From positions 62,001-126,000 of the forward strand of contig JAYWIR010000093.1 in NCBI GenBank assembly GCA_036172245.1: a stretch of 64,000 nt of DNA. Direction: 5' to 3'. How positions within the stretch are numbered: position 1 is the stretch's first letter; the number at the start of each line of letters is the position of its first letter. This document shows, in pieces, positions 23,471 to 64,000 of the stretch. Below the pieces are notes generated by a model. The model ran no database searches, was not told the DNA's origin, and saw nothing but the letters and a program-made list of their open reading frames with translations. Both the position numbers and the translations under genes were made by a program. The stretch comes from Raillietiella orientalis. Lineage: Eukaryota.

Positions 23471-24575
23471 ACCGTAGGGAAAACCCTGGAGGGTCGACTT
23501 CCAGATCCCGGCCACTCAACGGGGGCACCCTGTTTCCGCCAGCTCCCGCCAACGCCTCCGCACTTGAACAGGATGACCAGCGTCATCTTGCGGGGACACT
23601 CGAAACCCTCAACGCACTGCAGCAGTTTCGCACTGGCGCCAGAGTTAGGACTCCACCATTCTAACGCTTGGCAGAGGATTCGAACGCGTTACATCACCCG
23701 CCGAGACCGTGGTTACGCGGGCGCCCACGCGGGCCGGTTTAATTCCTAACCTCTGCATTCGATAATTCCGGCTACTCTGGCCAAAAGCATGCATTTCGAT
23801 ACCTCTCTGCCTCACAGCACACTTATATTCTTTAAAAATCTTTGTAGAGAAACAATAGAGAAACAGCATCGCCCCTTCTACTTCGATGCATCATTTGGTA
23901 GGTGCAATTACTCTCCTGTAAGAAGAGCAGCATTGCAACTAAGGTAGTGGAGGTGGCTTGGACCCAGGTCTTCCTACCGTCCGACTTCCACCTTGGCTTC
24001 TTGGGACTATTCAGACTGTGACTATTCAGTGAGAAGTCTGTCCTTGCAAAGCGGATCCAGGCGCCTCCTCTCGTTTTCGATTGTGACAGGAATGCCGGTC
24101 CGTGCAGCTGAGAGGGAATGCTTCCTCAAGAGGGTCTATTTCACCTTCAGGTGCTCATAGGATCAAAAACACCTTCAGCGCTTTAATTATTACAATAATT
24201 GAGGGAATCTATCCCTTCCTATCTTCTTGTGGAAAGTGGTCTTCCTGGAGAATGTAATCGTGTGAATGTCCACAATGTCTTTTTACACCTATTTTGGCGT
24301 AGATTTGCTTAAAAATGTACGTAGTGTGTAGGTCGGAGAAAGAGTGGTCTAGTTGCGCTTCCTGGAAGCGCATCCGGTTATCGGTCCCCTTCCAAGAAAC
24401 GTCCAGGAAAGCAACTTTCCTTGCCAGAACGGACCGCAGTTTGGAACACTTTTCTGGATTCCACCCTCCACCCCTTTCCTACAAGTGCAGGAAGCTCGTT
24501 GTCCTTCTCGACCTTCTTGTGCGCGTCGGATTGCTGTGGTGCCGTTCCTTGCCGCAAGATTTATTCAGTCGGTTC

Positions 24576-25976
24576 GCCAGATATGTGGGCAGAGTGAAGG
24601 GAATCATCCCTGATGCCACGCAGAAGGAGATTCAGGGAGCTCCGCGTGACGCGTCATTGATCGTTTAGTTGCCAAGGAATGCATCTCGCCGTCACCACAC
24701 TTTGGTCAAACGGCTGAAGAGCACCACTGCCACCCAAGGGGGGCCGATCGGCTCATCCCCGGTGCAGCCGTGCATCTCGCGGACGGTGAGTCTCCATCCT
24801 TGCGCTGTGTCTCATCTCCGCTCAGGAGAAATAGCAGCAACTCATTCGGCGTGCACGCTCTACACAGAGGTGTGTGACATTTGTGTGCCAATACGGAGCG
24901 CGTAACGCAAGCATTACAAACCGTGGAAAGCAAGAAAGTCCCCCCTCAGGTAGTGGCTGACCTTTTCGCAGAAAGGTTGGTTCCGAAATGTCGAGAGCAT
25001 TCGACAGCCCACGATACGCTCACCGGACTCTTCATAAGGTCAATTGCCTATTCGATGTCTATTTGTACAAGACCGAAACTATGGAAAATTGTCCAGCAGC
25101 TAGAAGAAGATAAGGTAAATGCATCGTGCATGATGGTCCGCGAGAGCACACAGCACAGGGATAATAGGAAAATAGGAAACTCTACGACTACTTTTATGCT
25201 GACCAGGCCGTGACAGATGACATGACACCGAGAGATTAATACGAGAGATACTGCTACCAAGCCTTGAACATGAAAGTGAAGCAACCAATCATGCTACTGC
25301 CATTGGGAAAATGATAAGTGACGTCTTGCTGACTGACACCGAGAGGGCCGTATGGTGCGTCTCTGATGACATGACACGATGGGCACAGCGTAATCTTTCG
25401 ATGGTGACCAAGTGCCAAGTCGGAAGTTTCCACGAGTGTAATCTTACATCTGCAGAGAAGAGCGCCAGAGACTTCTTGACAACATCTATGGCTGTATACA
25501 AAGCATGCAGAAAATCGGCGGATAACATCTGGGGAGGTGTTAATGGGCCTCTTGAATCTGGATCAACGTGGAAAGTGTACGAAGATTGGAGTCTCAGCGT
25601 CGAAGGCCTTCGTATGTTAGCTGAAAGTGAAAGTAATCGCAAAGGTCATCATGCATGCAGACTGAATGACTTTGAAGTCTGCGAGCAGGAGATTAGCATG
25701 AAGCACTCAAGATCTGGGTCCATAGTGCATGCAAAGATATATAAGACAGCATGCATGATGATGATGCTATATGACGACGAAGAGATGCATATTTTTGGTT
25801 ACGCAGCCATGGAACAACTGCAAGCTGTCTCGAAATTTGGGGTAGGCGCATGGGGCATATTCCATGAATTGCAGACTCAGAGGTGTATCCAATCGGGATG
25901 GAACCTAGAAAGGACCCACCCAATTCGTGTTAAGAACCTAACTAGAAGAGTCAGTCTAGGGAAATCAAAATCCTAA
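24576..25976 (+). pseudogene. Probable endogenous viral element: RdRp core fragment of a bunyavirus-like (segmented negative-strand RNA virus) L protein
   Basis: After removing an 8-bp and a 5-bp tandem duplication one frame reads QHRDNRKLY-x13-E..IR (premotif A/F), VWCVSDDMTRWAQ (motif A, 25362-25388), degenerate QEI..H..GSIVH (B-like) and MMLYDD (C-like, 25770). Motif comparison from memory. Confidence 0.7.
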
Positions 25977-27730
25977 GCGATACCTCGAAAGCCAAAATAG
26001 AGCCAAAGCCACAGACTTACACTCCTCAGGAGTGGCAACGATTTCCGCAAAAGGGGAAACCGGAAATTTTTAATGCCCAGAAAGACAGAAGACCCTGAAT
26101 CGGCATCGAGCATCATCACCCGAAGCTGCACCCTCAGCAAATGTGCATCGAAACATACATGCAAACTCCGCGAAGGAATGGCTCCATTCTGGAAGACGCC
26201 ATTTTCCACCCAGGTGTTCAGGTGACCGAGATGGATGCACTGGAAACTTTTGGAAACTTTTGGAAACTAGAAACTTTCAATCTTTAGGGACGAGGTGCGC
26301 AAAGAGTAGCCCCGGATTGTGTAAAGCTCGAGGGAAAGCATGAAAACGCAGAACTCGGATTCCACCCAACGGCCGTGTTATTAGAGATCATCTCGGAACG
26401 CGATTCTCCCCTTTGCAAGCTTATGTTCCCAAGGCGAGACGCAACCGGAAGAATTTTGTATTCCAAAGCCAAAACTAAGCTAGACCGGAAACTCAAATGA
26501 TTGTGTGGGAGAAACCACCGAGCTGCAAATTCCAAATCTCCAGGCAAGAGTACTGAGGAATAAAGGAGGACGCAAACGCCGAACGCAATCTCTCAAGGGA
26601 ATCACAGAATCTCTCCGCAGAGGTCCTCGGGATAGCAGCAGTGCTGTCTCTGCTCTCACGCCCCATCTCGTGAGCACGAGTCGAACAACGTGGTCCAGAC
26701 GCCCCGAGAAACGGCCTCCACTGGGTCCGAAGAGAATTGCCCTGAAGCATGAAGCAGCCGCTCGCCCCGGATGTGCTGGTTGATCGTACTGCATTCCTCG
26801 CAGGGTGAGGTGGGTGGGGTGGGGGACAATGGGAGCTCCGGTTGCATCGGGAATTGCTCAAGGGAACGAACCTCACGGGCGCGTTCGAACTCGAAGCGTG
26901 CAATGCATGCATGCAGGGAACGTAATTGCCGTCGACCCCAGAACGTGCACGAAATCATGTTCCAGGTGTTGTTGCGTCCAGCAAAAGCGTCTTCCCGTCT
27001 TCTTCCTTGTTCTTGCTTCTCCGAATAACTGCTGATGAATACGATCCATGCCAGGAGCTCGCGAGTCCATCTTAGGCGGATGGAGAACGTTTGCACGTCC
27101 AGATGTGAGCAGCCAAGTCCGTCAAGAGACAGTCACAAGGTTTCCCTCATTCCGAGCGGTCCAGAAATGTCGGCACACGCAAGGGGTGAAAACCCTGATC
27201 CTTAGCCCTTGGCTCTGTCTCCAGTTGTCCCTGCTGAAGTGCCTTCGGTCTCCTGGGTCCGATTTCCCGTTTCTTCGTGTGTGGAATGCGTGACTCGCGC
27301 ATGTGACCCGCGCAGGTCTGGAGTCTCCAGACCTGCTTCGAACTCTTCCTCTTGCAGCCGAGAGACGTCGCGCTGCTCTTTTCGTGAGATTTTCATAAAC
27401 TTTCGTTTCAAAGAGAAGGCTGCAGGCACGTGCTCTACTTGTGGACCTTGCCGATCCGCAGGCCACGTAGGAGACCACGTGGTCACGGTCTCCTCGCGTG
27501 GCGCACGGCCAAAATTCCCGGGTTCGAATTCCACGCGGGGAAAAGCTGATGCCGAGAGATGGAGGGGGAGTCGCGGGTTCGGGTTCATCCCGCGAGATGA
27601 CGCTGGGCGGCTTCCATTCATTCGGGTGCGACACAGGTGGTGGTTCGAACCCTGACGAGTGGCCGCGATTGGGAGTCCAACCTCCGGGGCTCATCTATAA
27701 ATCAAAGAGTGAATGCTCCTTTCCCACTGA

Positions 27731-30567: not shown

Positions 30568-33500
30568 AATCCTGGCACTGGTTTCCCCAAGCCCCACAAG
30601 GGGTGGGGTGAGTTTGTTTCCTTTCATCACTGACTCTAGATATTCATGCATTCGTTTTCTCCAATTAATTCACTTATGTCTCCCGGGATTATCACTGAGG
30701 TTCGCTACAGTTGGGGAACTGGGCGGTGTTTATGCCTGGACGTTGTCCTCAATCCTTCTCAGGATATGTCGGTGCTTCCAGGACTGTACTCTTTCACAGT
30801 TTCTTATGGCGATCTCCTTCTAGATAAGCCCTTTCAAGATTTCCATTGGAGATACGGCGGTGCTGGTGGTCTTCATCTTCAACCACCGCACATCGATGGC
30901 GGTGATGAAGAGGGCGATGGTCATTCTTACCATGAGATTATAACAGGGAACGTTCCCATTTCCTGGGAACATGCCTGCTAAAATTCCTATGGTCGATGTG
31001 GTGGGCAGCCCGGTCACCCTTTTGAGGGTGTGCCACTCTTGTTGCATAGTGGGACAGGTGACGACGTGGAGTCTTATATCCTTGTCTCCACATGCTTTGC
31101 AGGCCTCATCTTCTCTTCTTCCTGTGAATAGCCTAATGGTTGTCCCGCACAGCATTCCTCCATGATAAAACATCAGGAGGTTATCCTGTGTGTCCTGTGG
31201 CAAGTCGCTCCCCCAGAGCGTCGTTTTGGTCGCCAACAGGTTTACCCCTGCACTCCCGTGGCGATCGACGGCTTCTTGAAGGGCATGGTGTCTTTTTCCT
31301 CTTCGACTATTATGCGGCATAGGTTTCTCTTTGTTACCCTCGACCACACGAAGTTGTTGTGGTTTTTCCACACTTCGCGTGTCCTGTGGGTGAATCTTCC
31401 AGCTATCCTGTCCATGTATCGGAGTACTTCGGAGTGGTGAAGGTACTCTCCTCGTCTCTATGCTTGAGCTGCTTGCAAGGTAATCCTAGACCGCTGGTGG
31501 GTCCAGTATTCTCCGTATCCGGAGGTACCGAAAGCATGCACTGGATCACAAGGATGGATTCCTCCTGCCAGAGTTCCTTGTTCCTTGTTATGATCTTCAG
31601 CTGGTGCTTGTGTACCAACTGTTGCTTTCGTCTTCAGGTTGGGTCGATGGTCCCCCATTTTCCCACTCCGCCGAGCAGCTCAGTCATCAGTCCTCTCGAG
31701 TTATTTATCAACAACGAGTAAGTCCTGTACGCCGCATACGGCCAGCCTTCCCGGATTTTTCGACATGTCCAGGAGTTGTCGCACGTCTATGGTGTCCACG
31801 GCGTGTGCAAGCGACTTCATCCTGGTACCGCCTTCCTCCTTAGGACAACACAGTGGTTTGAGGAGGACTCTAGGTCGGTAACCTCCCCAGAGGGTTTTCC
31901 TTCGTAGCTTTTCTACCTGTATTTTGGTGTATTGATGCATTCTGCAGAAAGCCGCTACGGAGAGTATCTTTGGAAGGAGTATTTCGTTCAAAAGGTTGGC
32001 CTTCCGCTTCATGCTAAAGTCCAAATGGGTATACTTCGCTCCTTCTTGCTCTGTTTTCTCCAGGATTTCCTTCCACAATAGTTGAGACGATGAATTGTCG
32101 TCAATGTGGACACCCATGTTCTTGGCATTGTCCACCGTTCCGAATTCTTTTTTCATGAGTATGGGGAGATTCAGGATCCCCACGGGCAAAAGTTAGCTTT
32201 TCTGGGAGTGGATTTTTAAACTCAGTCCTTCTTCCATGAGCTCCGCCACATCCAGAAACACACTGATTTCTCTGCCCATTGAGGGAGAAGATCATCCGCG
32301 TAAGCCAGATGGGTGAGCCGTTGATTGTGGACATTGATTTCGCGGAGGTGCCCACTTCTCTCCATGAATGAAGAGAAAGCCTCCATGTATATGACAAACA
32401 GCTCTCATCGGACTGACTGCGTTGTCTTGGCGGACTCATGGTTCCATTTGGATGGCTGTCTCTTCCCCGTTTATCTTGATCTGAAAGTGCTGCTCTTCAA
32501 GTATCATCTTCACAAAGCTGCTAAATTGTTCCGAGAGGTCCAGTCTTCCTAGAATCTTCAGCAGCATCTCATGGTCCACCGTATCGAAAGCTTTCTCCAT
32601 GTCAGTGAAACCCAGTACCAAGTTCTCGCCGATATATCAGCTGAGACCAATGGTAGCCTGGGCACACTTGACATTGTCCGACATGTGGCGTCCGGGCACG
32701 GCGCATGTCTGAACGGGAGAGATGAGCTGTGGCATGACCTCGCCTAAGCGGTTAGCCCAGATCTTTGCTAACCACTTGGCATCGCTGTTCAGGATTGAGA
32801 TTGGTCTCCATTGGGTAACCATAGTCAGATCACCTCCTTTCGGCAACAATCTCATTCTGCTCTCGTAGAAGGATGCAAGTAGTCGTCCTTCTGGTCGGAT
32901 GCAGAGCGTGAGCTGGTGGAACAGACGTCGGTAGGCATGCGAGTACCGCTTATAGTGAGAGATGGGGACACTATCAGGGACCGCCGCCACATTACTGCGA
33001 AGTTCCACAAACGCAGCTTTCACTTCTTCTTCCGAGATTTACTTTCCAAGCATCTTCCGATGGTTTTCACTCGTTCGTTTTTCCAGGTGTCGCAGAAAAT
33101 TCCTTGATTAGTAAAGCACAGATGTCTTCGTCGGAAGTGCTCCACGTAACGCCACTGGAAGGCGTGAGAGATGTTTTCCAACGTGTACCGACTGTGGCCA
33201 TCATACTGAATGCAGAAGATGTCTGTTGACAGATTCTTCTTCTCCAGTACGCCGACTTTTTCTTTCACATTTTAGAAGACGTACTGACTCTCGTATTGTT
33301 CCCAATACTTCGAGAGGGAAAGATCTGGATGTGAAGCTCCCGGTACGCTCCCTGACTCAGTCTCATGTCCCCAAACTGTATGTTGCAGAACAGGTGGACT
33401 CGGTGTTTCAGACTATGCCAGTCGGCAACTCCGCGGATGCTGGTCGTCCGCAGAATCGTCTCTATAACTTCTTGATGGCACGGAAAAGTTTCGAACCAGG

Positions 33501-36100
33501 CGGGCATGCTGATGAGAGCCACCCTTGTGGCCCTCTTTCGCCGACGGTTTTCAGTCCGTAGGGACCTCACCAACCTCACCAACGGGTGATCGGACAGCAA
33601 GGTGGGCGTGTCACGAAACCTCTGCATACGGTTCTCTATATCGGAGCTGTAGATGATGTGGTCGATCGGATTGTGGCTGGCTGTTAGCCACAGCAGCGCG
33701 AAGTCGTCGGACAGCCTCCGATATAGAGAAGCCCATAGATATAGAGACCGATATAGTCCTGCCTCTGGCGTCTTGGGAATGGATGATGTCGTCCAGGATG
33801 TTGAAATCCCCCACGATGATCACGATGTCCTTCGGTGCGGCCTTTTGTAGGAGTGTTCTGTGGAGTTCTTCCGCACACTAATGCTCTTGGTGGTGTGTGC
33901 GTATACGCTCACAAAGAACAGGTGAACATTTGTGGACCAGGACATTGGGTACGCCGAAGATTCTTCCCGGCATGGAGCAGATGGTTTCCAGGATGGTGTG
34001 AGCGAGCTCGTTCCTTATCGAAATTGCCACTCCCATGGTGTTCCTCTGTACCTCGCTGGAGAACAGTTTTGCGTTCAATCGCCGTTCCACGTCGATGCTG
34101 ATTTGTTGCCCCATCGCGTGGGCTTCTTGCAGGCACATTATCTCTTGATGTGCCATGGTCCGACACAGTCCTTTTTCGTTTTGGCTGGTCGGTAAGTCCA
34201 TTAACATTCCAGGAGGTGATGTTGATCCTCCTGACGGTGGACAAGGACGAGGCCATAAAGGGGTTTTATTCTTTTAACCTTTCGGAGTTTCTTCTGCTAA
34301 GGAGACCGTTGCAGGCCCCGCACAGAGATTTCTACTACCAGCATTGCTTTCCATTTAGGTGAGGTCAGTGAATTCTGCCTCCTCCGTCGGGTTTCCCACC
34401 TCCACGATCAGTTAGCGAGGGAGCGTCTCCAGGCTCACCGTCGCACAGAAGTTCGACTTGATGCCGAGAAGCTTGTCTCCCAGCTTCTCACGCTGGGTTT
34501 CATCCACCACATGCGTAGACACTTCGTGTGCTAATGCCGTGCTAAAAAGAGACTTAGTTTATTGCTCCTTCTCTACATTGGATATCGCATTCGAATTCCA
34601 GAAGAGTTCCATTCACTTGTAGTGTCACGTTTCAACTTTCTCCCAAATGTCCTCCTGGACCTTGGAGATGCGTTGCAGGAGTTTCCTCTGCTCCTCTCCG
34701 CTGGTTCCCGGTTGGACCTCTTCATTCAGCTTCGCCACTTCCTCGTTGATTTGCAGGGTTTCCGCGTTCCCTTGACTGGCTCGGCTGTTTGCATTTTCTC
34801 TTCTGCTTTTTCCTCGGGCTTGTCGGAGGACAGCTGCTCCTTGACGAGCATCCTCCTCTTCCCTTTTTCCTTACTTCGATGAAGCCGTCCTCAGACACTG
34901 GGACGACCTTTCTTACTTTTTTCACCTTCTCGGTGATTTTTTGGGCTCTTTCTTCTGGTGTCTCTCTCGTACGGGTGAGAGCCCGCGCATGGTACGTCAG
35001 TTGGCGTATTCTGGGCAGCTCCACCTCGCTTTGCCCGTTGCCTTACTGAAGGCACAGACTTTACGTTGGCTGCAAGACCAGATCTGGTATCCCTGCTTGC
35101 CGCAGCGGAAGCACCGAGATCTTGGACAAGCACTGACCCTGTGGCCAAAATGCTTGCAACCCGTACAAAATGTAGGCTGTTGCCCATATCGTATGAAGAC
35201 TTCCAGGGAATTCCCATCGATGTGGGCGAGTCCCGGAATCTTCGTATCTTCAAATAACCTGATCTTGGCGATGACATCGCCGGAGAAAACCTTTCTGGAG
35301 CAGTTCCGGAATTCCACATCCAAAACTTCCCCTTATTTGGTGAGGAAACTCCACATTGCTTCTTTATTTGTTGTCACGCAGAGTCCTTCAAGAAACACCG
35401 TCGTATACGGCATTTCGCCGATTCCGCGGACCATCCTCTCGTGGATATTTATGCCCTTTTCGATCAGGGCCTTGATGAAGGGTTCACTGTCCGCGTGGAC
35501 TGTGAACTCCGTCGTACTCGGTACGATCGCTTGTGCGTGGTCAAAGTCTACATTCTCTTTATAGAGGGCCAAATACACCTCTGCGATATTATTTTCCCGG
35601 ATGAATCCTGTTTTGAAAGTGATCGGCTTCCCATTCTGACTGATCCGCACGATCGGCTCATCCACATTCTCGATTTTGCTGACATCCAGCTTTCCTATTA
35701 TTCGTGGTGAAGCGTTGGAATTTCCGGCTACCACCGCCGCGTAAGAAAATGCTCACGTCGCTGCAGCCGAACACGATGGCGTCGCAGCCTTCGAGCCCCG
35801 GCTAATTGGGAGGTCGTAGGCTGCGATGCCAGCGCCGTCGCGTAGGTGACACGCGGCGACGCTGCACAATCTCCATCAGCTGGGGTGACGTCGGCCTGTC
35901 CTCCAGCTCCCCTCTCATCCTTGAGGCGGACTGGTGAACTCCTGTCGCCGTGGTGGAATGCAAGTCCTCCACTGTGGTGTCGCTGCTGCTGGTGATTGTC
36001 CTCAGCTGCACTACACTGCCACTTCCTAGTGGGTAGCATTTATTAATGAATAAATGGATTATTAAATATAAATACGCAGAAAGCACGCAAGATCCGTGGT
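30568..36100 (-). mobile_element. Element H: near full-length, heavily decayed L1/Tx1-like LINE of a separate lower-GC family
   Basis: ORF1 ~34600-35930 with CTGCKHFGHRVSAC, CFRCGKQGY; ORF2 from 34256: SWNVNG, CLQEAH, VGDFN, LSDH, QWRPIS, DMEKAFD, LAYADD (~32292-32309), CKACGDK...H..TC. Many frameshifts; ends approximate. Confidence 0.88.
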
Positions 36101-36109
36101 TGAGTCCAG

Positions 36110-36510
36110 TATGCACTTTACGCGCTCGCCAAATCGCGGCAGGGGAGTGAATACCCTTAACTGTGAACAGCGTAGTGTAAAAGTTAAACCTCGAGCAAAG
36201 ATAGTAAGGGTGTGAAGTTTAACCATTGAATGTGAACCCTCCGGCAAGGCGAAACTCTTCTCCTAGTGGGCCTCTGCATGCTTTCCATGATGCCACGTAG
36301 ATCCGTCTGCACTGCACCCAGGTGGAGATAGATATCCTGCTGCTATCCGCAGAGAGCGAAGTGCACGCTCGATGTCGTGCCTCGCCTCCGTCGCTCCAGG
36401 CCGTCACAATCCCGTGTATGAGGCATAGAGCTGATGAGGCCGCGGGCGGGGGCAGGGTCTCAGGCGTTAAGAGGCGTAAAGTGAACAGGTAACCCATAGG
36501 GGGCAAGGCA
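36110..36510 (-). mobile_element. Short 3' fragment of a C/D-like LINE
   Basis: LPPPAASSALCLIHGIVTAWSD matches the ORF2 C-terminus of C/D. Confidence 0.7.
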
Positions 36511-39290: not shown

Positions 39291-39369
39291 TCTTATCTCC
39301 CTCACTTTACCTTCCAAGCGCTGACCTCTGCTGGTGACTGCTCCGGGCATAGAACTCATCCGGAACACG

Positions 39370-50500: not shown

Positions 50501-53500
50501 CACATTACATGTGGATGGCTACTCTCACGGCTCGAATTCAGTCTTTCTTCCTTTTCATGAAAGTCAGCCAAAGCCATGGATTCTCTGACGGTTGCTTGCA
50601 AGGGCCATACGTTTATGGACTTGGAGCCAAAGGCGGGAAGTTCGGACCTTTCGGCACCTTTCAAATGGTGGTAACTTTGGGGAGAAGGGGGAAGTCGACT
50701 GAGTCTCCCATGGGAACGATTTCGATGTCATCGTTCGATAGGATTCGGAACTGCTGATGTCTGCTGGTTTGGGTGCGTTGGGGGACCTCGGAATGCTTAC
50801 TGCAGCCCCGTCCATGTGTCGAGAGTCGTTCGCTTTTGTTTATTTAGCACGGATGGTAAGCAGCCTTTTTGGGCTGGATGGACAGGTGGTGTTCGTGTGA
50901 AGTGTTTCCACCGAAGCAGATGCACTCATCAGATTGTCCAATTTTCGTTTCGCTTCGGGACGCCTTTGTTCCATGCTGGTGACTCTTTGGTTTCTGGAAA
51001 ATACGACCTATTTAACGAGTCGTAGAATCGGACGGCGTTTCTGCTGACGTCCAAAGTGCTCAAAACGTCTCAATACTTTTCACCATGTATGTATTTTCTT
51101 CGATGCAGACGTCCCTTTTACAAGAGTTATTATTATAAGAGTTAACCACACAACTTCGGATGCTCAGTGTTGATCCCATGTTGATGGCGCATAGCGGTTG
51201 CACCAACGAAAACTTTGGGAATGGAGTCTGTGTGGTGGATGCTCCCATCACACACACTCACAGGAGTGGAGGTGCTGCACCACTTCAGCTTCCTTTACTG
51301 CTGTCACCCTTACATGGTCGAAAGCGGTAGACAGCTACGGCGTCCGTCGACGCTGAAGCTTCTCTGGCCGATGACATGGACTGCGCAACTTCTTTCGGTC
51401 CAATCAGATGTTCTTACTCTTCTAAAGCTGCCTTGGTCTTCATGCCCATTGTACCATCACCATTCGCCGACAAATTTCGACTTTAAAAGTGGGGAATTGG
51501 CTGAGGATCGTGGACAACGATGGGACATAGCAGAGGCTGAAGTCGCTGCCGGACGCAATTCGGGACCGGGACCCGCTGTCGGGCAACAGGACCACGTAAT
51601 CCTTGTGGTCCCACGGGATCCATTGGTCACTCCGGCCTTTCCACCGTATGTGCAACTTGGGGCTCCGCAGCTCGTGATGCAATCCAAGATGCGACATCTT
51701 TTCCCAAGCTCGGAAATTCTTCGATTGTCTTCGTTTACCTCAGCAGCACGAAACTTTCCTCTGTGGCAGAAGATCGTTCAATCTGAATCGTTTAGGGCGA
51801 ATTCTGAAAGGCACTCTGTGGTCATTCGGCAGAAATTACGAGCGCATCTCGTGCGTGCTGCGAGGTGGTTGCGGCAGGGGTGGCACGGGTTTGACCGGAT
51901 CGGTCAGTGCATTGGCTCCGTGGTTTGGTTTCCACCTTTCCTCCCTGTCAATGTTTAAAATCCTACGCCGCTGTGGCGTATGCGTGGATTTCTCGTGTGC
52001 TGTGCGTGTTGTTGTAAATGAAGGGCTCAGAACTCGGTCAGGGTGTCGGAAGTTGGAATGAAAATGTAAGCATTTGCCGAGGAAGTCGCGGTGCTAAGGG
52101 ATGGTGGCAATGGCGAGTCTCGTGGAGCACTTGAAGCACGTAGCAGCAAATAGTTTGCTGCCGTAGCTGCTGCGCTTTGTTTCTGTTTCTGGAAACCTAT
52201 AGAACTGAAATCGATTCTTATGTTTCACATGAATCGCTATAACACGAAGACATCCTCTGCTCCTGGGAGCGTGCGCGCTGGAAGGAATTTCGCAAAGCGA
52301 AGCACAGAGAGATCGCAATTCGATGTTGGGGCGGTGAAGTATCTGTTCCAAGTGAATGGCTCGCAACATTTTCTCTGGCGCCCTTGGTGGCTTCCTGGAT
52401 GTGATGCAGCATTTGGGCGAGGGGGGGGTTGTATGGCGCAGCTTTGCTGTTGTCCCTGCTGAAGCCAACGACGGTGATTGGTTGCCGCTGTAGAGATGGG
52501 TGTCGTCAGCCTTCCTGCATGACTGCATGCGTTTGGTCTTTTTTCCAGAGTCGAAGGACTTTGGCAAATGTTTTGCTTGCAGTTCCGAGCGGATCAAGTA
52601 TCCAGGAGGTGGTTCATGTGTGCGATGACTGTTTGATCCTGGTCCTTCCATGGGATTCTTCTGTATTTATGATCTTGTGATTCGGAAGCAATCCTGAATA
52701 AGGTTTGTTCGTGGCGTAGAATTTCATCTTAACACCCACGGATTTACCGTTCTGGATCAATGGTAGTATTTGGAATTATGGAATTCTTCAAGAATAGATG
52801 GAAATTTTCCGCATAGGGTTTTCCGGAAATTCTCCTTCATTGTTTTTCGAATGGTCATGTTGTCGAAGGAGATGTGGTGACGGTAAGCAAACGGATTCCC
52901 ATCTTACCACCTGAAGAGGTAACGCACTGTGCTTTTGGCTTAAGGTCCCTCCTGATGCGCTCTGCAAGGGTTGTCTCGAATACCTCGCTTTTCAGGTGTA
53001 GAGTGGTGTGGGCTCGAGTCTGCCTCTATTCTTTAGCTCTTCCTTCCTCTGTTTCCGAGTGTTCTCCTGTCTTCAGCTGGCGTCTCGAAGCCGTCTGTCC
53101 TCTGTGCGTGGTGGCGCGACATCTTTTGAGCATTGCGATCAAAGGATTTTTGGTCTTTACTGAGGGCATGAATGTCGTTGTACGTCGATTCCTTAGGAAT
53201 TTTGGTTTCCATTGGTGGTAATGAGCAGAGGTTTGTGAAGATGCTTATCTCTATTGTGATCGTGGTTCGGAGTAGGGCAGACTGCTGGGTTTAATAATCG
53301 TTGTTGAACTGTGGCTGAGCAAGAGGTCGAGTCTTGCTGAAGGAAGGAAGCCATCTGGATGATTCCCAGGAAGGGAAGGAAGGTGGCGATAGAGTGTCAG
53401 TGTCGGAGAGTATATAGAGGGCGTTCAATGAGGAGCCGTGTTGGCAGTCATCATCGTGGATGTGTTTCTCACGAGGCTACTGTATTCTCTTTGTACACGT

Positions 53501-55279
53501 GTATGGTTGCTTATGGTGAAACTTCACGTGTCCATCGTGTTGCTGAAAAATGAAGTTGACAAAAAGTTGGATATAGGAAGTGTGCTGTGGAAATTGATGA
53601 CTATCAATGTTTCTGTGTGGTCGGAAACGGTTAATCTGGTGAGCATAAAAAGCGTTTGTCAATATGTGAAGATTGATGGCAACATGGCTCATAATCTCGC
53701 ACATGATTCCGTTTCTTAAAGACTATGACAGCGTACTGGACCGTGTACGGCTTGTTTTGCAAAAAGTGTACCGAAGGGAAGCTCCTCACCGTTGTTCAGG
53801 AAGCGGCATCCACCTTTTTGCAGCTCTGCATGTGGATGGAGTTTCCTTTGAGGATCAAGAATCTTGCAAATGTGTTTTCTTCTGGTGTTTCTAGCATTAT
53901 CTGGTCAAAAAGGACTATCATGGGATGAGGAATTATTTGTGTTTAGCTGGACTGTTTGTGAGCAACAAATTGCAAGAAAATGGTGCTTCTGAGGATGTAA
54001 AGAAGCAAATGGATAGGTTTCGTCGTCACCGAATACGACGAGTATGGGCGTGTTCGGTACCTGTGGCACTGGAAAGTACATATACGTTCTTGTGTCAAGT
54101 TGTTGAGAATGTGTGAGGGTGGCCAAAGGAGGCGTACGATAAAGTGTCTTTGGCTGCAGTGGGAAGATGAGAAGTGTGAGTGTTCTGTTCACATCTCCTT
54201 GGGAACGTATCATTCGGTCAACTGTTTCACGAATGCGCGGAGGGGCTCATTTGCAGTTTCGACGTCGACCAGTCCTTCCAAATTTCTGGCACTTCGGTCA
54301 GCCCCGTTATGGAGAGCTGTTTTTCTGTTCCACTGCGATCGCGCACCGCCACCTCTGGATTGGCATTCGTTCATATAGAATGGTGCGCTGTTAGTTGTTT
54401 GTCCACAGGTCGTTCTCCATGCAGAAGGTGGGTCGAACCATGCGCTCCAGCTGCGGTGTCCCACCTACTTGCCCGGGAAAAAGGATGCGATTCCGCAGGC
54501 GGGGCGGGAAATTGCCTTCCTGTCAGAGTGCGTCAAGCAACCAGCTGAGGAGGCGGAGGACTTAATTATTCTGAGATCTCCCTGCATTCCATAGTAATGG
54601 CTTCCACATTAAGTGAACTCTGCATACAAATTGGTGAAGGGAGGAATGACTGATATTCGGCGTTGTTGTTCAGCGAATATCATATACTTCAACAGTCTGT
54701 GGTATACGCTCGGAATCAACTGACCACTCCTTCCAGTATCGTAGTGTGATGCGGCGCAAAAGATCGCACTGCTCTGTGGCGTAAAGACTCTTTTTTGGGT
54801 AGAACAAAATCTCTAGAGGCTCAGCCTTTGCGAGAGACGGTGTTACCACGGTAATGGGGACCCAAGAACGCTATTTTACTGGCTTTTTCGTTTTGAATAA
54901 ATCATCGGCGTAGAAAGTAATGTTAAATCGATTTGAGTATCCAGCACATTCCTTTAAATCGATGTTCTCTTGAGCTGCAAATAGACAATCGTCGTTTAGA
55001 ACGGAACTAGGGACTGTCCTGTTGAGATGGCGCAACTGAATGGCATGCAGCAAATGGCTTGAAATTAGCAATCGTGCCAATTAAGCTGGCACCCAGCGAA
55101 TCACTAAGAACACTGGTGACAAATTCAAACAGTTCGCAGTCGGGTGTAACCCCGAAAGTGTGCTTGAATGAGCGTTCGCAAAAACGAAATGCCAAAACCT
55201 TTCGGTGGATCCAATTACTGTCCGGCATTCTCCATGCCACATCAAGTATTCGTTCACTGAGACCTAAGGGACTGCTCCT

Positions 55280-57120
55280 CACTATGGAGGACAACACCTG
55301 CAGGCCGGGTACGGAGACACTTGATCCCCATCCCTCGTCGTCCGCAGCCGCACCCTGTTCTTCATAACCAAGGTGTCCAGACGAAGGCAAAACGCGTGAA
55401 GCGTGCCTTGCACTGTAGGACAACTGGATCCGGTCAACATCTTTCTGATGATGAGCACCTCTTCGGTTAGCTGTTCATACCGTCTCATGAGCTCATGGTG
55501 CCCAGAGTAAGGGCTTATCAGCACGAAAGGCAAGTCCCACGCATAATGATGTAAATACTGGGCAGTCTCAAATCTCGACCAGGTCTTCTCGGTCTTGAAA
55601 TTTATGTCACTGTTTCCAGAGTGCATTTCCCTATTGTGGGCTTCTGCAACTGCATGGAGGTCACGGTCTCCGTTCTCTACTGACCAACAAAGAATTTCGC
55701 GGTGTGGGACGTCTGATGTTGTTTCAGAATAATTAATGGCGCCGGGGATCCCAACCAGAGGGAGGTTCAACCCCACGGGAGTCGTACGAACGAACAGCCG
55801 CTGACACACACATCAGTGGCAGACACGGTTAAGCTCACAGGAACGGCGCCACAAGGACGAGGAGAATGCTCTCCCAAAGTGAGTCAACCGGTCTCCCGGA
55901 ATATGCAGGGGTGTGGGGCCCAACGCCTCCTCGCTGGGTTCCTCCACACTCTTGGGGGCTAGGGGCAACTTCGGCCCCTCTCGCTTAATCCATAAAGTCA
56001 AGCTCGACAGCTACCGAGAGACGATGACACGCCCGGTGCTGCGAGCGGGGAGACCATGGTGTCGTACGGCTATTTGCTCCCCCAAATAGCCACAAATCCT
56101 TGTCCTGCGCCAGGAGAGTCCGGCAGACCGCGATGACAAAGCGACTTTCAGAGGGACCCTTATTCACAAAGCGGAATACACGCTTATCACCACTGATCTG
56201 CGTGGCGAACTTGACGGCCCGCTGTCATAACGAGGGCTTGATCTTCGAGTCTCCAAGAGGAGCCATGGGTGATGGTTCGCTTCCCCCTGGTGTCACCTCC
56301 TCACCACCACTGGAGTTGCAATCCTGAGGCTCACTCTTCTTCCTCGTGGGCAAGATCGTGACCCCGCGGAGTTCCCCCTCCGCAGGCCCTGTGTCCGGTC
56401 ATTCATTCGCTTGATAAGGGAGTCGGGCACCCCGCCCGTTAGGCGCTCCGACGTCTGCACTCTATCCAAACTAAGGAGTGAGAACCTCGTAATGAGGTGG
56501 TCCTCCAGAGACGAGCCTAAGTTAGAGGTGGTGCGCACCTCAACGCCAATAGGGCTAATGACGGATCTCAACAGTCTTCTCGGCTTTCTCTACGTCCACC
56601 GTGTACCGCTTTTTTTCAGGAAGGGTAAACCTGACCGTCTTCGGTGTTTTCTAGGGGATACCCCAACCCCGTCCGTATGTACGCTCTCGGTGGCGCACCC
56701 CGTAGCACGTTCGGGAACCTTGGCGGGAACTTCCGACCCCATCCCGGCTCCCTCCCCAAACTCCGCCTTCTCTGGGACTCCATTTTAGTCAGGGAAAGTC
56801 GATTCTGCCCCTACCTCGAGTCTAAGCCGCTTCAGCACCGGTAGCAGAGCGCTGAAGACCCGGGTGCAGCGGAGTTGCCCATTTTTTTTTTCTAAAATTA
56901 CTCTACTCAGTTCCCGGGAGGCTATATCGAACTGCATGAGGTTCCGTGCAGTGCTTAGGTCGTATAGCACTGCCCGAGCAATTTCGCCCACCCACGAGGC
57001 GCTGAGATCCCTGCGAGCTCGCTGGCCCACAATGGGCTCAGCTCGGCCTTCGAATGAGGAAGAGCAGCCATCACATTCGACTCTCAATTCGGGCGTCCAC
57101 TGTGCAAATTGTAAATACAT
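55280..57120 (-). pseudogene. Unknown protein family, decayed copy 1
   Basis: Three colinear peptide blocks shared with 59600-60880, e.g. AQYLHHYA....SGHHELMRRYEQLTEEV.IIR..LTGS..TVQGTLH. Confidence 0.6.
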
Positions 57121-59599
57121 TGCTCATAATTCACCAGCTCTGTTATCATCCGGAGCAGATGCCGAATCAGATCATGTCCTAAATTGTAGAGAGGGTCGCT
57201 CATCACTGCTTTCCTCAGCATATTCCGGCTAATCAATCCTTTAATTCTTATTGTCAAAGGGACGATCCAAAACGTCTAATCCTTAAGCTCTGCGTTCTGG
57301 TCAGGTGAGTTCTAAAATAAGTGTTGTCTGAAAAAATCTCATTGATCACCCTGACGTTTCTAAAGGTTTGAGAGGGCTCTCGTAGCATTATGGCGAGTCT
57401 TTCGATAATTAGATTCCTCGTTTTTGTATACAAAACTAACACTACCAGAACAAACACACACAATCTTATGAATGTCACTCATGTTTTGGAATAGAAACTG
57501 AAATTTAGACGTTGTTTGGTCTTCTACAATAGAGATCGAACGCTGAATAATTGGGTCTTTGCAACAGACCGAAGAGAACTGGTACTTAAGTGCATCAGGT
57601 TTTTGATAGCTATGAAAACTATTATAATTCAGTTCCAATGAATATCCTGCATGCTGACGTTGTGGAATTTTAATTTCTTTAATCTGTTCTTCCGAAAAGG
57701 TTCATGCAACGATTTTTTTCTTCGAAAATTAAGAAATTCCAAAGATGAATCCCAATGAGTGAATTTCCAATTCTGTGGGCCGTTGAATACCGCTGAACCT
57801 CGACTGACTGGGAATTCAGCTCTGGATGTGCTCCATCCCCAGGGATGGGATGCATTCTATCGGTAGGTGGTTCTCTTCTGTCATTAGCTCCTGCTATTTT
57901 TCTAACAGGATGAGCAAGGTTTAGCATCCATCGTTATAGAGGATTCAGCAGCTATAACCTGCTGCATCACTTGGTCTTTATCATCATGTGGTCTTCTGAC
58001 ATTGCAGACAAGCGTTCAGATCCGCCAGATTAATGAGACAAATTGGAGTTCACAACTGCTATCACACGGCAATTTGGATAACCTGCTGGTATCCAAATCT
58101 GCTTCCAGCTCTTGAGTCTGCAGTGGGTGTATTTCGCTCATGAGGGCTAGCAGCAAAGTTGGAAATTTATGAATCGTTTAACTGTTATTCTCGTTTGTGG
58201 TCCCCGCATCTCTTCAGCATGGCCAAAGCACATCCCGGAGCATATCATTCACAAGGATGGATATTCTGGCATAAGCTTTCATCAAGAAAATGTCTTCGGA
58301 ACCACTACCATGGACTTTTCTGGACTCTGTTTCGACGCCGGTGACGATGGTAACGAACATGGTCAATTAGTAGTGCTCATCGGCAGCCTTGGAGAGGACA
58401 CGAGGGAGTACGCAACCCTTTTACAAGAGAATATACCGTCTATCAGCATGCGGATGGGACCCAGACGATACAAAATTCATAAGCAAGAGGATCCTCAATA
58501 TTTCTGTGTGCATTCATCTCCTTGCTTGTTGAGTGGGAGAAATGTCCACCGTATGCATGCGTATACAACTGCTACTGACGACATCTCCTCAGGTAATCAA
58601 TATTGCGCCCTTCAATCCAGAATATCCAAGAGATTTTTGGTTTTTCGTATAATGGGAGTCTTCATTAAGCTGTGGTGGACATGGGCAGGAAAAACAAGAA
58701 GGATCGGAGCAGAAAGCATTTTCTCTTTCTGGAGAATCCGAGGCATGAAGGAATGAAAACATTGCTTTTGTTGGTGATCGCATTTCTACATGATAGTTGG
58801 GCTTCCACGCCTTGGGCTTTGAACGGAGTTGCAACTCTTTTACTCAGGGGGTTTTAAAGCCTACAAGTTGATGAGCAGATGCTTCGTATCACACATCAGA
58901 ATTCACAGACAGAATGACACCAGTGAAGTAAGCAGCCAAGGAGTCAGGTGACGCACGATCTGTCCGCGATGATAGATGAGGCATTTCGCAGTCACTGAAG
59001 TATGGAGGAGCAAATGCTGCTTCGACGGTTGAAAGCACGCTATGTGCCATTAGTTGATTGGCTGCTTGATAGTTTAACGCCCCAAAACGCTGTAAATCAC
59101 GATAATAAGCTGCAAATAATAAGCTCCTTTCTAACCTTATGTTCTCAATGATCTTCAAATAATGTCCATTTAAGAGAAGGTGCCATCGAACCTTCTCTGT
59201 CTTTCTAGCTGCATGAGTCAGCACTTCCATTGGTACTCGAACTTCACTCCCTTCTCAGAAAAATCCATTAAGAAGTAGGTACCTTGAAGAAGAGTAGATC
59301 TTGGTTTTATCGAGTTCAGCTGCTTGTTCCTTCCATGTTTAATAAGTAATTGAGAAATGCCAATCTGTTGCTGTCTGTGTCTTCTTTTCGCTATTGCTGT
59401 GCTCAGCCACCTGCCCAGCAAGATCTACGACACCAGTTGTCGTGGCTTCTTCAAAGAATTACCGCCTCACGGGCAAACTGCCTCACGATTCGTGACGGCA
59501 AGTCTGGGTGCAGTGCACCAGCAAGCGGCTCGGGTACTTTGCCTATCTCAAGCAGGTGATCATCGGTCAAGCCGGCGGCTGAAATACCGTTGCCTAACA

Positions 59600-60880
59600 A
59601 TCCCACTGATGTCATCCATTCGTTGCCTCCCCACGAGGTCTCGACGGTTGAGTTCTCTCGACCCGGGAGAGTACACGCTGAGTCGGAGAGCTGCTCTTCC
59701 CAACCGCCTTCCTCAAAACCTCGGTCCTGGGACTCCTGGATGTAAAGTCCTCCTGCGTAGACTGTAGGAGTGTAGCGTGCCCTGCACGGTAGAGCACCGA
59801 CGGACCCAGTGAGCGTGCCCCTGATAATCTGGACTTCTTCCGCAAGCTGTTCGTGGCGTCTGAGCAGTTCCTGCGTGCCAGAATGGAGCCTCAGAACCGC
59901 CGCCTCTCTGTCGCAGGCGTGGTGATGCAACTCCTGAGCGCTTGGGAAAGTGTTGGAAACCCACACTCACCAACTTTTGGCTGGTGAGTGTGGATTTCGC
60001 ACGGGGCTCATTTGCTCCTTCTCCCTCTTGCCTCCTCTTTCTCAGTTGGGGGTCTTTCTGAACTTCTTTCCCCTTCTCGCCAGGCCTCACCGCTTGACGC
60101 CTAACAAAGACGGTGGACTCTAGCGGAATATTCCGTCATGACTGGTCACCACATGGTTGATGTCTAGGTCCCAGGTTATAGCTCCCGTGGCATTGGCCTG
60201 ACTGTGGCCTTGATTTTTCCACATCCAAGCAAAGCGAACCTCCTCACGGCGAGGTCGTGCCGGGACATTGCGTCTATGATTTCGTTCCTAAGGCTACGAA
60301 GGCGTGAGTCGTAGACGGTCGCAATCAACTCACGCTCAGCCGTTATGACGTTGCCGTCAAGGCTTTCCAAAGTGACATCCTCGAAGCTCATTGCCTTCCT
60401 TTGAGGTTCTTTGGTCTTAGTCCGGGGGTTAATGTCCCCTTTATCTTAAGTTTTGCAGTCTCCGCAACGGAGCTCCTGGAGTCGACATTCGTTGGTACTG
60501 CCTGTGGAGTGTTGGGGTCTGCGGTCTGCTTAAGAGCTTCGTCCTCGTCCTCAAGGCGGTCCTCTAGTTCGCCTTGAGGACGTCCTCATGCCTCTCAGGA
60601 CGGACCTGAGCGTACTTAAAACGCGAGCACACCGCAGATGCCCTCCTTTATCTTCAAGTATTAACTTTCTCTTTCTGTTTCTGTTTAACTTTCTGTTTAA
60701 CGGCTTCATCTAAGCCAGAAAATGTGCACGCGCAACTCAGATCTGCGAGTCGCGCCTCGGCAATTTCCCTCACCCACAAGGCGCCGATCCGAGTGAGTGT
60801 GAGGTGCCAAAACTGATCACCTCCCGGGTCCGTCGAAGGCCGAGCACTCATTGCCCTATTCATTCCTTCTTTCGGTCGGA
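59600..60880 (-). pseudogene. Unknown protein family, decayed copy 2
   Basis: AQELHHHA....SGTQELLRRHEQLAEEV.IIR..LTGS..TVQGTLH; ALWVREIA.A.L.DLS. Confidence 0.6.
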
Positions 60881-61614
60881 TTCCCAAAGGCAGCAGCATG
60901 ATTGATTGCTTCACTTTCATGTTCGAGGCTTGGTAGCAGTATCTCTCGTATTTATCTCTCGGTGTCATGTCATCTGTCACGGCCTGGTCAGCATAAAAGT
61001 AGTCGTAGAGTTTCCTATTTTCCTATTATCCCTGTGCTATGTGCTCTTGCGGACCATCATGCACGATGCATTAACCTTATCTTCTTCTAGCTGCTGGACA
61101 ATTTTCCATAGTTTCGGTCTTGTACAAATGGACATCGAATAGGCAATTGACCTTATGAAGAGTCCGGTGAGCGTATCGTGGGCTGTCGAATGCTCTCGAC
61201 ATTTCGGAACCAACCTTTCTGCGAAAAGGTCAGCCACTACCTGAGGGGGGACTTTCTTGCTTTCCACGGTTTGTAATGCTTGCGTTACGCGCTCCGTATT
61301 GGCACACAAATGTCACACACCTCTGTGTAGAGCGTGCACGCCGAATGAGTTGCTGCTATTTCTCCTGAGCGGAGATGAGACACAGAGCAAGGATGGAGAC
61401 TCACCGTCCGCGAGATGCACGGCTGCACCGGGGATGAGCCGATCGGCCCCCCTTGGGTGGCAGTGGTGCTCTTCAGCCGTTTGACCAAAGTGTGGTGACG
61501 GCGAGATGCATTCCTTGGCAACCAAACGATCAATGACGCGTCACGCGGAGCTCCCTGAATCTCCTTCTGCGTGGCATCAGGGATGATTCCCTTCACTCTG
61601 CCTACATATCTGGC
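60881..61614 (-). repeat. Inverted near-identical duplicate of 24576-25309 (bunya-like L fragment); coding-like sequence continues to ~61960
   Basis: ~734 bp colinear reverse complement with scattered substitutions; same micro-duplications. Confidence 0.95.
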
Positions 61615-62449
61615 AAGCGCAATAATTATGTCAACAGGTATGTGCTTCGAAAACACGCTGCGTGCTGTCGGCACGTAGATAATCCACTTTAGGAAGTGCA
61701 TTTTACACTCATAGGTATAAAAGACAATCTTATCATAAGGAACCTATATCAGCGCGTTGATTCGAAATCGAAAAATGCTCTCCTGAAAAATTTCTGCACA
61801 TTAAGTTCATCGGATATATTCAGTTATCCCATGTTGTCACCAATACCATTCCTGTGCCATGGTCTTGCAGACCAATTCAGCATTTGCAACACGGTTTCGT
61901 ACAATGTCACTATATGGTAAGTGTACAGAAAAATACCGCACGACTGGACCGTGGAAGGGATGGGCTTTTACCACCGGATGGCATCCTCAGCTGGATAGTG
62001 ACTATCTTTAACAGCATCCTTGAACCCACTGACACGGCTCCCTGCAACTTGGCTGCCTTGGACGCGTGCGTGGGAAGCTTCGACTGGTGTCATGGCAACG
62101 TCGCATTGCTGTGGTTTTCCACCCGAGTAAGCCGAAGCTTTTATTATTAAAATTTTTACATAGAAAAATTCCATAATGAAGTCATCTTTTTGGTCTTTTT
62201 GGCTTTTGTTCTTCAGTCAGAACACATCGTTCTGATTGCCTTGAGGCACTTGTCCTTACCGACCCGCAGGCCGGAAAGGTCCTCATTGCTGTGGAAGAAA
62301 GAGCGAGTAGCGCCCCAGCGTTGCTGTGGTTCCCTTCTTGCCTTCCTATTAATTACTTTTCGTATTCTTGGGTATACTTCATTTGCATCTTTTAACAGTC
62401 TTGATATACTTTGATACCTTGACTAAACTAAATTGTTACATTTCTTTAT

Positions 62450-63050
62450 CATGAAATGAAATATTCAGTGACACCGAACTCTCATCAAGTTCAATTATTG
62501 ACCCAGTATCAGCAGTTCTATCAAGGCAGTCTAAGAAACCTTCAACTCGTTCTTTCATTTTATGATCACATGCCTGAAAGTAAGCAGGTAAGGGGATATT
62601 TGTGGTCCAGAACAGGAATCATGAATCTGCAGACTGGTTATCACCTTGTCCGATAATGTATCTCTTTATACCTATTCTTCTCTCTATTAAGAAAGTGAAA
62701 TGCAGTTGTCGCTAATGTCCGCCCTTCATAGTGCCACCCCTTCAACTCATCTGGATGTCAAAACCAGTATCTCACTTCCTGCTGGACTTCATTCTGGGTC
62801 ATTTCGAAAAAGCATTCGGGCGGATTTCGGTCAGCAGCAAGGATGATCATAGATTCTTCGAAGTATTGGCGTGTCTATGTGCATAGTCCGGTTGTACGAA
62901 ATATATCATCAGTTGATTGGAAAATGGGATGTACAAATATCCAACTCCAACACATTCCAGCTCTTTCATCAATCCCTCACCTGCTGACGGAGTCCTTATG
63001 CGAGGGCTCCAGGGTGAAGACATACAACTTCTGGGGCGACTATACAATCA
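62450..63050 (+). pseudogene. Possible mononegavirus-like L protein capping-domain fragment
   Basis: RGYLWSRTG resembles the YLGS(K/R)T GxxT motif (TGG vs GGG, one change); no intact HR motif seen. Confidence 0.3.
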
Positions 63051-64000
63051 TTAACGGTTTTCTCCCTCTGTAATTAGCACTTGTGCAAGGGTTCCCTTTT
63101 GTTCTGCTGGCGTTCTTCCTGTTCAAAGCTTTCGTAAGAAACCAAATTTGCAGATGGTATTTTTTTTCGAGGCAGTGCAGTTCTTGTTGGCACTGCTTCT
63201 CGGGTTTGCTCCTTTGCTTCGGCGCTTTCGTTTGGCTACTGCTCATACTATATATTGGTCGTGTACAAATACATCCTTCAGTCTTGGGGGTTCCATCTCT
63301 TAAAGGTGCTCTCCGATAGAGTATCGCAGTGGAGGCAACGTATTTTGTTTCTTCTTCCACTTCATCAAGTGGGAGAGCCACTCTCGAGAGCAGGTTAAAG
63401 TGGTCCTCTTCGTGTTTCCGCTCCACTCCTGAGGAGGGTTTCATATCAAAGTCACCTTTGATGCTCGCATGCCCTTACTGTATCACCAAATATCTCCTTT
63501 CCCCGTCAAAAACTGGCCGAATCGCTTATGTTTTTCTGCAGCAGGCATCAATTGGGGAGCATCGCTGCCGTCATCCGAATTTGCAGCGCTCTTTTGCCTC
63601 TGTTTCTGAAACCATGTTGGAACGCAGGTGGTTCGTACAGTGGCAAAGATAAGTTTTCTTGAAGACACTGTTCAGTATCGCTCGGGAGTTTCTATAATAT
63701 CTCAAAGTTTCCCAAGGAAGTTTATCTTTTGCACGCTGCGTACCACGTTTTCCCGTCGGTGAGACGGTAAGCTGTTCTTTGGGGGACTTTCATCAAAAGT
63801 GCTCACATCAAAATGAATTTGTGATCATAGACTTCTCCTTCCACTCTCATTCGCAAATTAACTGATTCATGTGGTTTTCTTGTGATGTTTTTTCTGATGG
63901 TGAATTAACTAATCAGTGTGAGTTCAATGCCTCCTGACAATATTGGTTTAGGGTGCCGTCTGAATCACCAAACGACATCGTTGGTTATTGTGACACTGGC

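Follow-up and report, generated by a model that had tools for sequence, protein, structure and literature searches.

A two-copy, LINE-rich block of arthropod DNA with clustered pieces of qinvirus-like polymerase genes

LINEs, repeats and viral pieces at the locus

The features at the locus and in its second copy are listed in Table 1, where the window is the whole stretch of DNA that was analysed (64,000 nucleotides). The host is an arthropod, with 14 cuticle-protein matches, and genes of the PIWI pathway are present in it, including a PIWI-clade gene (E 3.5e-141). The locus was enriched in TE remnants and EVEs. LINE islands are widespread in the host genome, and very large LINE nests surround the locus. 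The retroelements recognised were LINEs, and no LTR-type family was found in Pfam scans of the window frames, in agreement with a previous sequence-only reading that had associated the locus with LINEs rather than LTR elements. LINE-protein matches in the whole window covered 23.8 kb on the minus strand versus 3.0 kb on the plus strand, the majority coming from a nest at 2-22 kb. Between 23.7 and 64 kb the values were 5.2 kb (4.1 kb of it a single LINE) versus 0.85 kb. In the 30 kb to the right of the window, 4.5 kb lay on the plus and 2.7 kb on the minus strand; the corresponding values for the 20 kb on the left side were 7.3 and 9.6 kb. The earlier statement that most large TE pieces, with several exceptions, are on the minus strand holds for the window totals and for 23.7-64 kb; the window totals reflect mainly the 2-22 kb nest, and the balance is reversed or mixed in the flanks. 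LINE endonuclease was the only family over the Pfam cut-off among 130 frames from paralogs and flanks, and Rfam gave no matches, the SINE-like repeat included.

Table 1. Features of the locus and of its second copy (positions in the window unless a contig is given; a dot marks features without a strand)
Feature	Position	Strand	Remarks
Two-copy block, ~46 kb	21775..~67,546	.	second copy at G000:C26:513,444-560,752
Stretch extra in C26 copy	24184..24205	.	2.9 kb in C26 without counterpart here
Piece X, coding-like	24576..24905	+	stop 82 bases upstream of L start codon
L EVE 1 (qinvirus-like)	24988..25884	+	residues 1-306, viral start codon onward, frame broken
LINE family F, full-length, decayed	30582..36150	-	many copies at 74-89%
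Stretch extra in window	35829..37475	.	1.65 kb without counterpart in C26 copy
Piece U2, coding-like	36837..37825	+	32-40% protein match beside LINE, C19:809.6-810.6 kb
LINE ORF2 C-terminal pieces, decayed	39354..40598	+	LINE-protein matches
LINE 3' piece	41307..42473	-	LINE-protein matches
Low-copy ~12-kb repeat	42553..54411	.	colinear paralogs C26:2.807-2.824 Mb and C19:0.80 Mb, 70-85%
Pepsin/cathepsin-D-like protease fragment, host-type	44531..44665	-	weak, E 0.0015
Family U1 copy a, low-copy	55264..57060	- (inferred)	79% DNA match, C16:3.855 Mb
Open frame, 201 codons	58151..58753	+	78% DNA match, 191 bases, C45
L EVE 2 (qinvirus-like)	58904..59452	-	residues 754-937, motif C region
Family U1 copy b	59454..60880	-	C115 and C359, protein matches of ~45%
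Inverted duplicate	60881..61614	-	98% copy of 24,576-25,309; part of X + L
Piece X, longer copy	61288..61743	-	152 codons open
SINE-like high-copy repeat, ~170 bases	62113..62284	.	no Rfam match
A-rich stretch	62400..64000	-	possible positional continuation of L EVE 3
L EVE 3	65,093-66,769	-	just right of window; 1,677 bases
Chuvirus-type (Monjiviricetes) glycoprotein EVE	C26:516,711-517,367	+	PF24664, E 9.7e-11, over cut-off

The region had been described as a mosaic of short coding fragments with abrupt composition shifts. A segmentation test placed six composition boundaries in 51-64 kb and one each in 23.7-26.5 kb and 36.1-39.3 kb, and none in five of five shuffles per region or in two LINE stretches used as controls, which bears out the shifts. 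The segments of 51-64 kb, at about 1.0-2.4 kb, were longer than the 0.3-1.5 kb proposed. In contrast to that description, the part from 51 to 54.4 kb belongs to the low-copy repeat of about 12 kb, which includes the pepsin-like fragment; codon periodicity in this repeat is no more than weak, and numerous indels break the frame.

Four pieces of qinvirus-like L polymerase genes span 42 kb: the three L EVEs and the L part of the inverted duplicate (residues ~1-95 at 60,915-61,202, minus strand). L EVE 1 scored 175 in a frameshift-aware scan (background 31-46) and matched the profile HMM with E 2e-21 over residues 102-296. L EVE 2 had 34-36% identity, with two stops in 175 aligned codons (E 1.4e-18 in the genome search, E 5e-28 with the profile HMM). 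Reversed sequences, used as controls for the L profile HMM, gave nothing above 8 bits, and the frameshift-aware scan of 42 tile-strands peaked at the L pieces only. Genome-wide, at least eight L matches were obtained (10 candidates scored), and eight of the eight lay at this locus or its C26 copy. The pieces contain stops and run through several reading frames, as the description of broken frames had it. The viral bases by piece were 549, 288 and 1,677 on the minus strand and 897 and 657 on the plus strand, the last in the C26 copy. The viral DNA demonstrated in the window amounted to 1,734 bases, out of 40,301 in 23.7-64 kb and out of about 17,800 in the three regions previously named as mosaic. 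In two overlapping L pieces, 33 of 126 residues were identical (approximately 26%) and the DNA similarity was not significant, which points to at least two donor viruses.

The closest known proteins were only 23-36% identical to the L pieces. The L references, encoded on contigs of 6,761 and 6,055 bases, were 1,835 and 1,830 aa long; the size range of the Qinviridae L segment is 5.6-6.6 kb, one reference contig being slightly above it (PMC10721934). Both full-length references carry the IDD motif, reported as the catalytic motif C of qinviruses (PMC8513489), and its position is altered in both L EVE pieces aligned across motif C. Matches of the references to PF00946 were weak (E 1.3e-5, below cut-off), and a PF00946 profile search of the genome gave no match. 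The references agree with the L segment of Qinviridae (Muvirales; PMC10721934) in size class and motif C but are metagenomic proteins.

Several candidate readings were rejected. The phenuivirus reading of the open frame at 25.2 kb found no PF04196 match (the controls were silent too), its real homolog being the N-terminal L region. A continuation of L EVE 3 into 62.4-64 kb scored 28, not significantly different from shuffled means of 26-30, and an inversion with staggered breaks as the source of the 734-base inverted duplicate had no supporting junction match. The reovirus Sigma_1s match at 62,732-63,070 (E 0.0029) was below cut-off and was put down to chance. None of the stop-to-stop window frames scanned (150, 140 and 127 proteins) matched a viral family over the Pfam cut-off; this result is little informative, since the proven L pieces were included in the scans and scored nothing.

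Most fragments of the region were without an identifying match. Pieces X, U1 and U2 gave no identifying family match in Pfam, NCBIfam, PHROGs or metagenome searches. NCBIfam matched none of 29 frames and PHROGs one of 29 (a family with no assigned function, in an AT-rich frame); the single metagenome match was rejected as a bacterial-type oxidoreductase-like frame on inspection. The two U1 copies were 55% identical over 49 residues, and the AlphaFold model of a U2 paralog had a pLDDT of 29.

Two copies of the block with different viral content

In the assembled genome, the block of about 46 kb occurs twice, and the copies differ in content. It is host chromosomal DNA, with multi-copy host repeats on its flanks and a place on two contigs (0.26 and 3.0 Mb). 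The copies are 89% identical at the left, and identity increases rightwards to 99.9%. The second copy might stem from a haplotype that was not collapsed, or be an assembly artefact, with allelic differences in place of a segmental duplication, and the 99.8-100% identity at the right end and the small size of the window contig (C93) are what this would predict. However, the flanks of both copies, where sampled, are unrelated to each other on either side, and in the left part identity is no higher than 89-96%, with interruptions by kilobase indels, so we regard this account as a serious but somewhat unlikely one.

The chuvirus-type glycoprotein EVE sits in the 2.9-kb stretch of the C26 copy that is lacking in the window. 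Of three chuvirus-type G matches in the genome, one was in the C26 copy and two were at C68 sites, so the locus is not the genome's only EVE archive. Judged by the protein matches, non-retroviral EVEs are present and clustered at the locus, as had been proposed. The earlier reading named fragments that match host genes or ordinary TEs, together with a lack of mapped small RNAs, as evidence against a memory locus; the first of these applies in part, to the repeats and the host-type gene fragment. The protein matches show that RNA from at least two qinvirus-like negative-strand viruses, and from a chuvirus-like one, was converted to DNA and came to lie at the locus or its copy.

Origin and putative function

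Overall, the best explanation, which we hold to be rather probable, is an old hotspot of insertions, lying within a LINE-rich genomic island of the arthropod, and a candidate source of small RNAs; the locus is an EVE hotspot of a known sort and plausibly a piRNA source. Viral RNA was turned into DNA and inserted among LINE debris and low-copy repeats, with the abundant LINEs as the presumed suppliers of reverse transcriptase. The LINE involvement is suggested by proximity, since no target-site duplication of 10 or more bases was found at the ends of the pieces, which are old and uncertain at their ends and showed only chance-level 9-base repeats. The inserted pieces then decayed, and part of one was copied in inverted orientation. 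Putative PIWI-pathway small RNAs probably arise, or once arose, from transcription of the locus, and they may come from both strands or from patches rather than from one flamenco-like transcript. The pieces are probably too decayed to protect against present-day viruses, and their heavy decay suggests a record more than an active memory.

The locus could instead be a passive graveyard, a gene-free heterochromatic island that tolerates insertions under weak deletion and selection and makes no small RNAs. Mixed strands, heavy decay, the very large LINE nests around and the further EVEs scattered elsewhere (chuvirus G at two C68 sites) all fit such an origin. It accounts poorly for the confinement of eight of eight L matches to a single 42-kb span and the copy of it despite widespread LINE islands, and in Aedes aegypti it is the piRNA clusters with several EVEs for which activity in soma and ovaries is described (PMC8048955); we therefore consider it unlikely, while still a contender. 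An active one-strand memory of the flamenco type, transcribed from the plus strand and yielding antisense piRNAs against LINEs and viruses, appears improbable. The host has PIWI genes, and every homology-stranded piece between 41 and 67 kb is on the minus strand (the LINE 3' piece, the protease and three L pieces), but L EVE 1, the G EVE, U2 and the LINE pieces at 39-40.6 kb are on the plus strand. With viral pieces on both strands, the sequence is unlike a flamenco-type one-strand cluster, in which nearly all TE and EVE pieces would share a strand, as do nearly all pieces of Aedes cluster 38 in the available part of its report (PMC7161354). The decay of the pieces, and their 23-36% identity to the nearest known proteins, also argue against it. 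A further joint reading, which we consider doubtful, combines three elements: the block would be a LINE-fed viral trap duplicated as a unit, its copies gaining and losing viral content separately; X, U1 and U2 would be fossils of virus genes without sampled relatives; and the order of X stop, 82 bases and L start would reflect a qinvirus-like genome in which one more gene preceded that of the polymerase.

Known EVE loci and implications

EVEs yielding primary piRNAs made up 81.4% inside clusters versus 35.7% outside (10.1101/396382). As far as the available part of the report goes (PMC6580184), a 75-kb EVE hotspot of the tick Ixodes scapularis holds LINEs and no LTR elements, and replicase fragments are the commoner kind in that species. 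Our locus resembles the Ixodes NIRVS hotspot DS826508 described there in extending over tens of kb, in its negative-strand fragments of different viruses, and in having non-LTR retrotransposons and lacking LTR elements. It differs in its viruses (qinvirus-like and chuvirus-like, compared with orthomyxo-, mononega- and bunya-like) and in the two copies with different content; small RNAs were mapped there, whereas our locus is described from DNA sequence. Like Aedes aegypti EVE cluster 38, it is a repetitive intergenic region in which numerous EVEs and TE pieces are gathered; that cluster, in the part of the account at hand (PMC7161354), is same-strand and LTR-rich with a demonstrated antisense transcript, whereas our locus has pieces on either strand and LINEs as its recognised TEs. 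Qinvirus EVEs have been reported in ants (PMC6540820; an RdRp), basal hexapods (PMC6955108) and sea lice (PMC10287012), with piRNAs from qin-like sequences in Caligus (PMC10287012). In the accessible portions of these reports they are single or scattered, in contrast to the four pieces from at least two putative donors within 42 kb found here.

The concept has been published before, and so has the LINE association: LINEs instead of LTR elements were reported for Ixodes scapularis (PMC6580184, in the portion available) and for Chilo suppressalis (PMC12810003). The locus adds a candidate EVE cluster that is precisely placed and open to testing, in an arthropod genome with many LINE nests. It extends the qinvirus-like fossil record by at least two donors and by an N-terminal L piece that Pfam missed. 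Its copies with unlike EVE content may offer a natural comparison between a passive graveyard and a maintained source of small RNAs.

Decayed viral polymerase pieces within a patchwork region

A Pfam search of the window, which spans C93:62,001-126,000, gave no match above the cut-off for viral content. When the X-read frame of 24,501-26,500 was compared with 1.84 billion proteins, one match was obtained (E 4.6e-6, 24% identity), and the matched protein was the N-terminal part of a family with four further unnamed proteins (4 of 1,454 candidates), two of them 1,830-1,835 aa long. The PF00946 match in these two full-length references was weak (E 1.3e-5 and 0.081). Because both carry IDD at motif C, given as the qinvirus signature in PMC8513489, and their size agrees with the Qinviridae L (large polymerase protein) segment (PMC10721934), the donor viruses are called qinvirus-like, a designation made from sequence.

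In a scan of 42 tile-strands, the peaks (175, 242/102, 55 and 199/518) all fell on L pieces and the remainder scored 31-46; the peak of 55 barely exceeds this background, and the support for that piece is its DNA duplicate. The score of L EVE 3 was set against shuffled C-terminal profiles (about 30), and no reversed control for the L profile search exceeded 8 bits. The L pieces contained two stops in 175 and three to seven in about 320 aligned codons. The presence of non-retroviral viral fossils (EVEs), proposed in the sequence-only reading, was borne out by protein homology: the viral origin of four qinvirus-like L pieces and one chuvirus-type glycoprotein piece was demonstrated, together with their clustering and decay. 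Within the studied region (23,700-64,000), 1,734 of the 40,301 bases are demonstrably viral.

The mosaic with abrupt composition shifts described earlier was real by segmentation and unevenly spread, with six boundaries in 51-64 kb, one in each of two smaller regions and none in shuffles or two LINE controls. The reported minus-strand bias of transposon pieces held for the whole window (23.8 kb of LINE matches on minus vs 3.0 kb on plus), but within the region (5.2 vs 0.85 kb) it reflected largely one element, and the window's flanks were mixed; the original observation was partly confirmed. A 12-kb low-copy repeat at 42,553-54,411, with 70-85% paralogs, showed weak codon periodicity relative to a LINE control and includes a pepsin-like fragment (E 0.0015). 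A degenerate AT-rich 78-base minisatellite lies within it (46,540-47,420) and is also found in its C19 paralog.

Features of the locus and related sequences (window positions unless a contig is named)
Feature	Position	Strand	Remark
L EVE 1, residues 1-306	24,988-25,884	+	begins at viral start codon
L EVE 2, residues 754-937	58,904-59,452	-	L reference homology
Partial L copy, residues ~1-95	60,915-61,202	-	within inverted duplicate
L EVE 3, residues 473-1041	65,093-66,769 (window-equivalent, just outside)	-	score 594
Inverted duplicate	24,576-25,309 / 60,881-61,614		734 bases, 98%
Stretches holding open frame X	24,576-24,988 and 61,200-61,743		
U1	55.3-57.1 and 59.5-60.9 kb		relatives on C16, C115, C359
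U2	36.8-37.8 kb		relative on C19
Full-length LINE	30,582-36,150		family F
Further chuvirus-type glycoprotein EVEs	G000:C68:59,035-59,718 and 443,111-443,908		E 4e-34 and 1e-42

Clustering, donor viruses and the inverted duplicate

All eight genome matches to full-length L (from 10 candidates; a lower bound) were located either here or in the second copy of the locus. Two L pieces spanning the same L region agree at 33 of the 126 positions they have in common, whereas their agreement with the reference is higher (39 and 47). Their DNA comparison gave no significant match. This suggests two or more donor viruses, with decay adding to the divergence. By our own arithmetic, the chance of two independent insertions within 42 kb of the 210-Mb assembly is of the order of 4e-4 under uniform insertion, an assumption that is too generous because repeat islands attract insertions.

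Beyond the right end of the inverted duplicate L runs on in the left copy only, and beyond the other end X runs on in the right copy only; both arms therefore come from one longer X-L piece, by inversion or copy-and-paste. The stop of X precedes the L start codon by 82 bases on the same strand, and the base composition changes at about 24,890. X may be a viral gene that lay upstream of L, or a neighbour with no connection to it.

The second block copy, LINE surroundings and unassigned pieces

The block from 21,775 to about 67,546 was found again at C26:513,444-560,752, with identity climbing from 89% to 99.9%; no match was detected between the flanks of the two copies in the sampled parts, which on C93 took in 140 of 256 kb outside the window. 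The copies could represent either a duplication or an allelic difference. The C26 copy lacks 35,829-37,475 and has an extra 2.9-kb stretch, missing from the window's copy, with a chuvirus-type glycoprotein EVE (E 9.7e-11), one of three genome matches to this protein. It also carries a 356-base insertion (G000:C26:531,437-531,792), corresponding to about 38,562.

Endonuclease/RT LINEs form a nest that fills the window's first 22 kb. The nest left of the block (1-21,774) is absent from the C26 copy and runs on leftwards along C93 for another 20 kb or more. A 136-base piece within the family-F LINE (34,513-34,648), absent from that LINE's other copies, is repeated at 89% directly past its 3' end (30,432-30,567).

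Five pieces have a coding-like character and a low copy number: U1, U2, X, 58,151-58,753 and 62.4-64 kb. Identity searches gave no assignment for them, and their origin may lie in viruses, transposons or the host. On C115 (94.8-96.5 kb), a U1 relative and more unassigned frames adjoin the 3' portion of a family-F LINE with an internal deletion; the relative and this LINE portion share a strand, an arrangement that would fit LINE-captured RNA. In U1 copy b (about 60,400-60,420, minus strand), one frame's stop seemingly overlaps the next frame's start codon, whereas in the C115 relative a gap of 30 bases takes the place of the overlap; coupled stop/start frames are known from some viruses.

Possible origin, small-RNA role and known EVE loci

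Chitin_bind_4, a cuticle-protein family marking arthropods, gave 14 of 16 candidates above the cut-off across the whole genome. Of nine Piwi-domain matches in the genome, one belongs to the PIWI clade (Piwi-like protein 1, E 3.5e-141).

The proximity of LINEs suggests that their reverse transcriptase may have made the viral cDNA; no target-site duplication was found at the viral pieces. The locus may supply the PIWI pathway, with priors in 10.1101/396382 (primary piRNAs from 81.4% of EVEs within clusters vs 35.7% of those elsewhere) and PMC8048955. Rightwards from 41 kb, homology-oriented pieces are all on the minus strand. Because viral pieces occupy both strands, the locus does not follow the flamenco-like one-strand design, unlike Aedes cluster 38 as described in PMC7161354. 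Protection against present-day viruses would be unlikely, since the viral pieces are decayed. Both the local inverted duplication and the existence of the block in two copies are counted as established; the proposed archive is partly supported, its piRNA role being a candidate.

Ixodes EVE hotspots are described as occurring with non-LTR retrotransposons and without LTR elements, and the EVEs as yielding piRNAs (PMC6580184). For Chilo, too, an association with non-LTR elements is reported (PMC12810003). Qinvirus EVEs are known in ants and basal hexapods (PMC6540820; PMC6955108), and in sea lice qin-like sequences give rise to piRNAs (PMC10287012). A polymerase hotspot with several qinvirus donors did not appear in the literature passages covered, a partial set of main texts. 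The C93 locus holds genuine qinvirus-like polymerase fossils, clustered in a LINE-island block that is present in two copies, and is a further example of a kind of locus already known.
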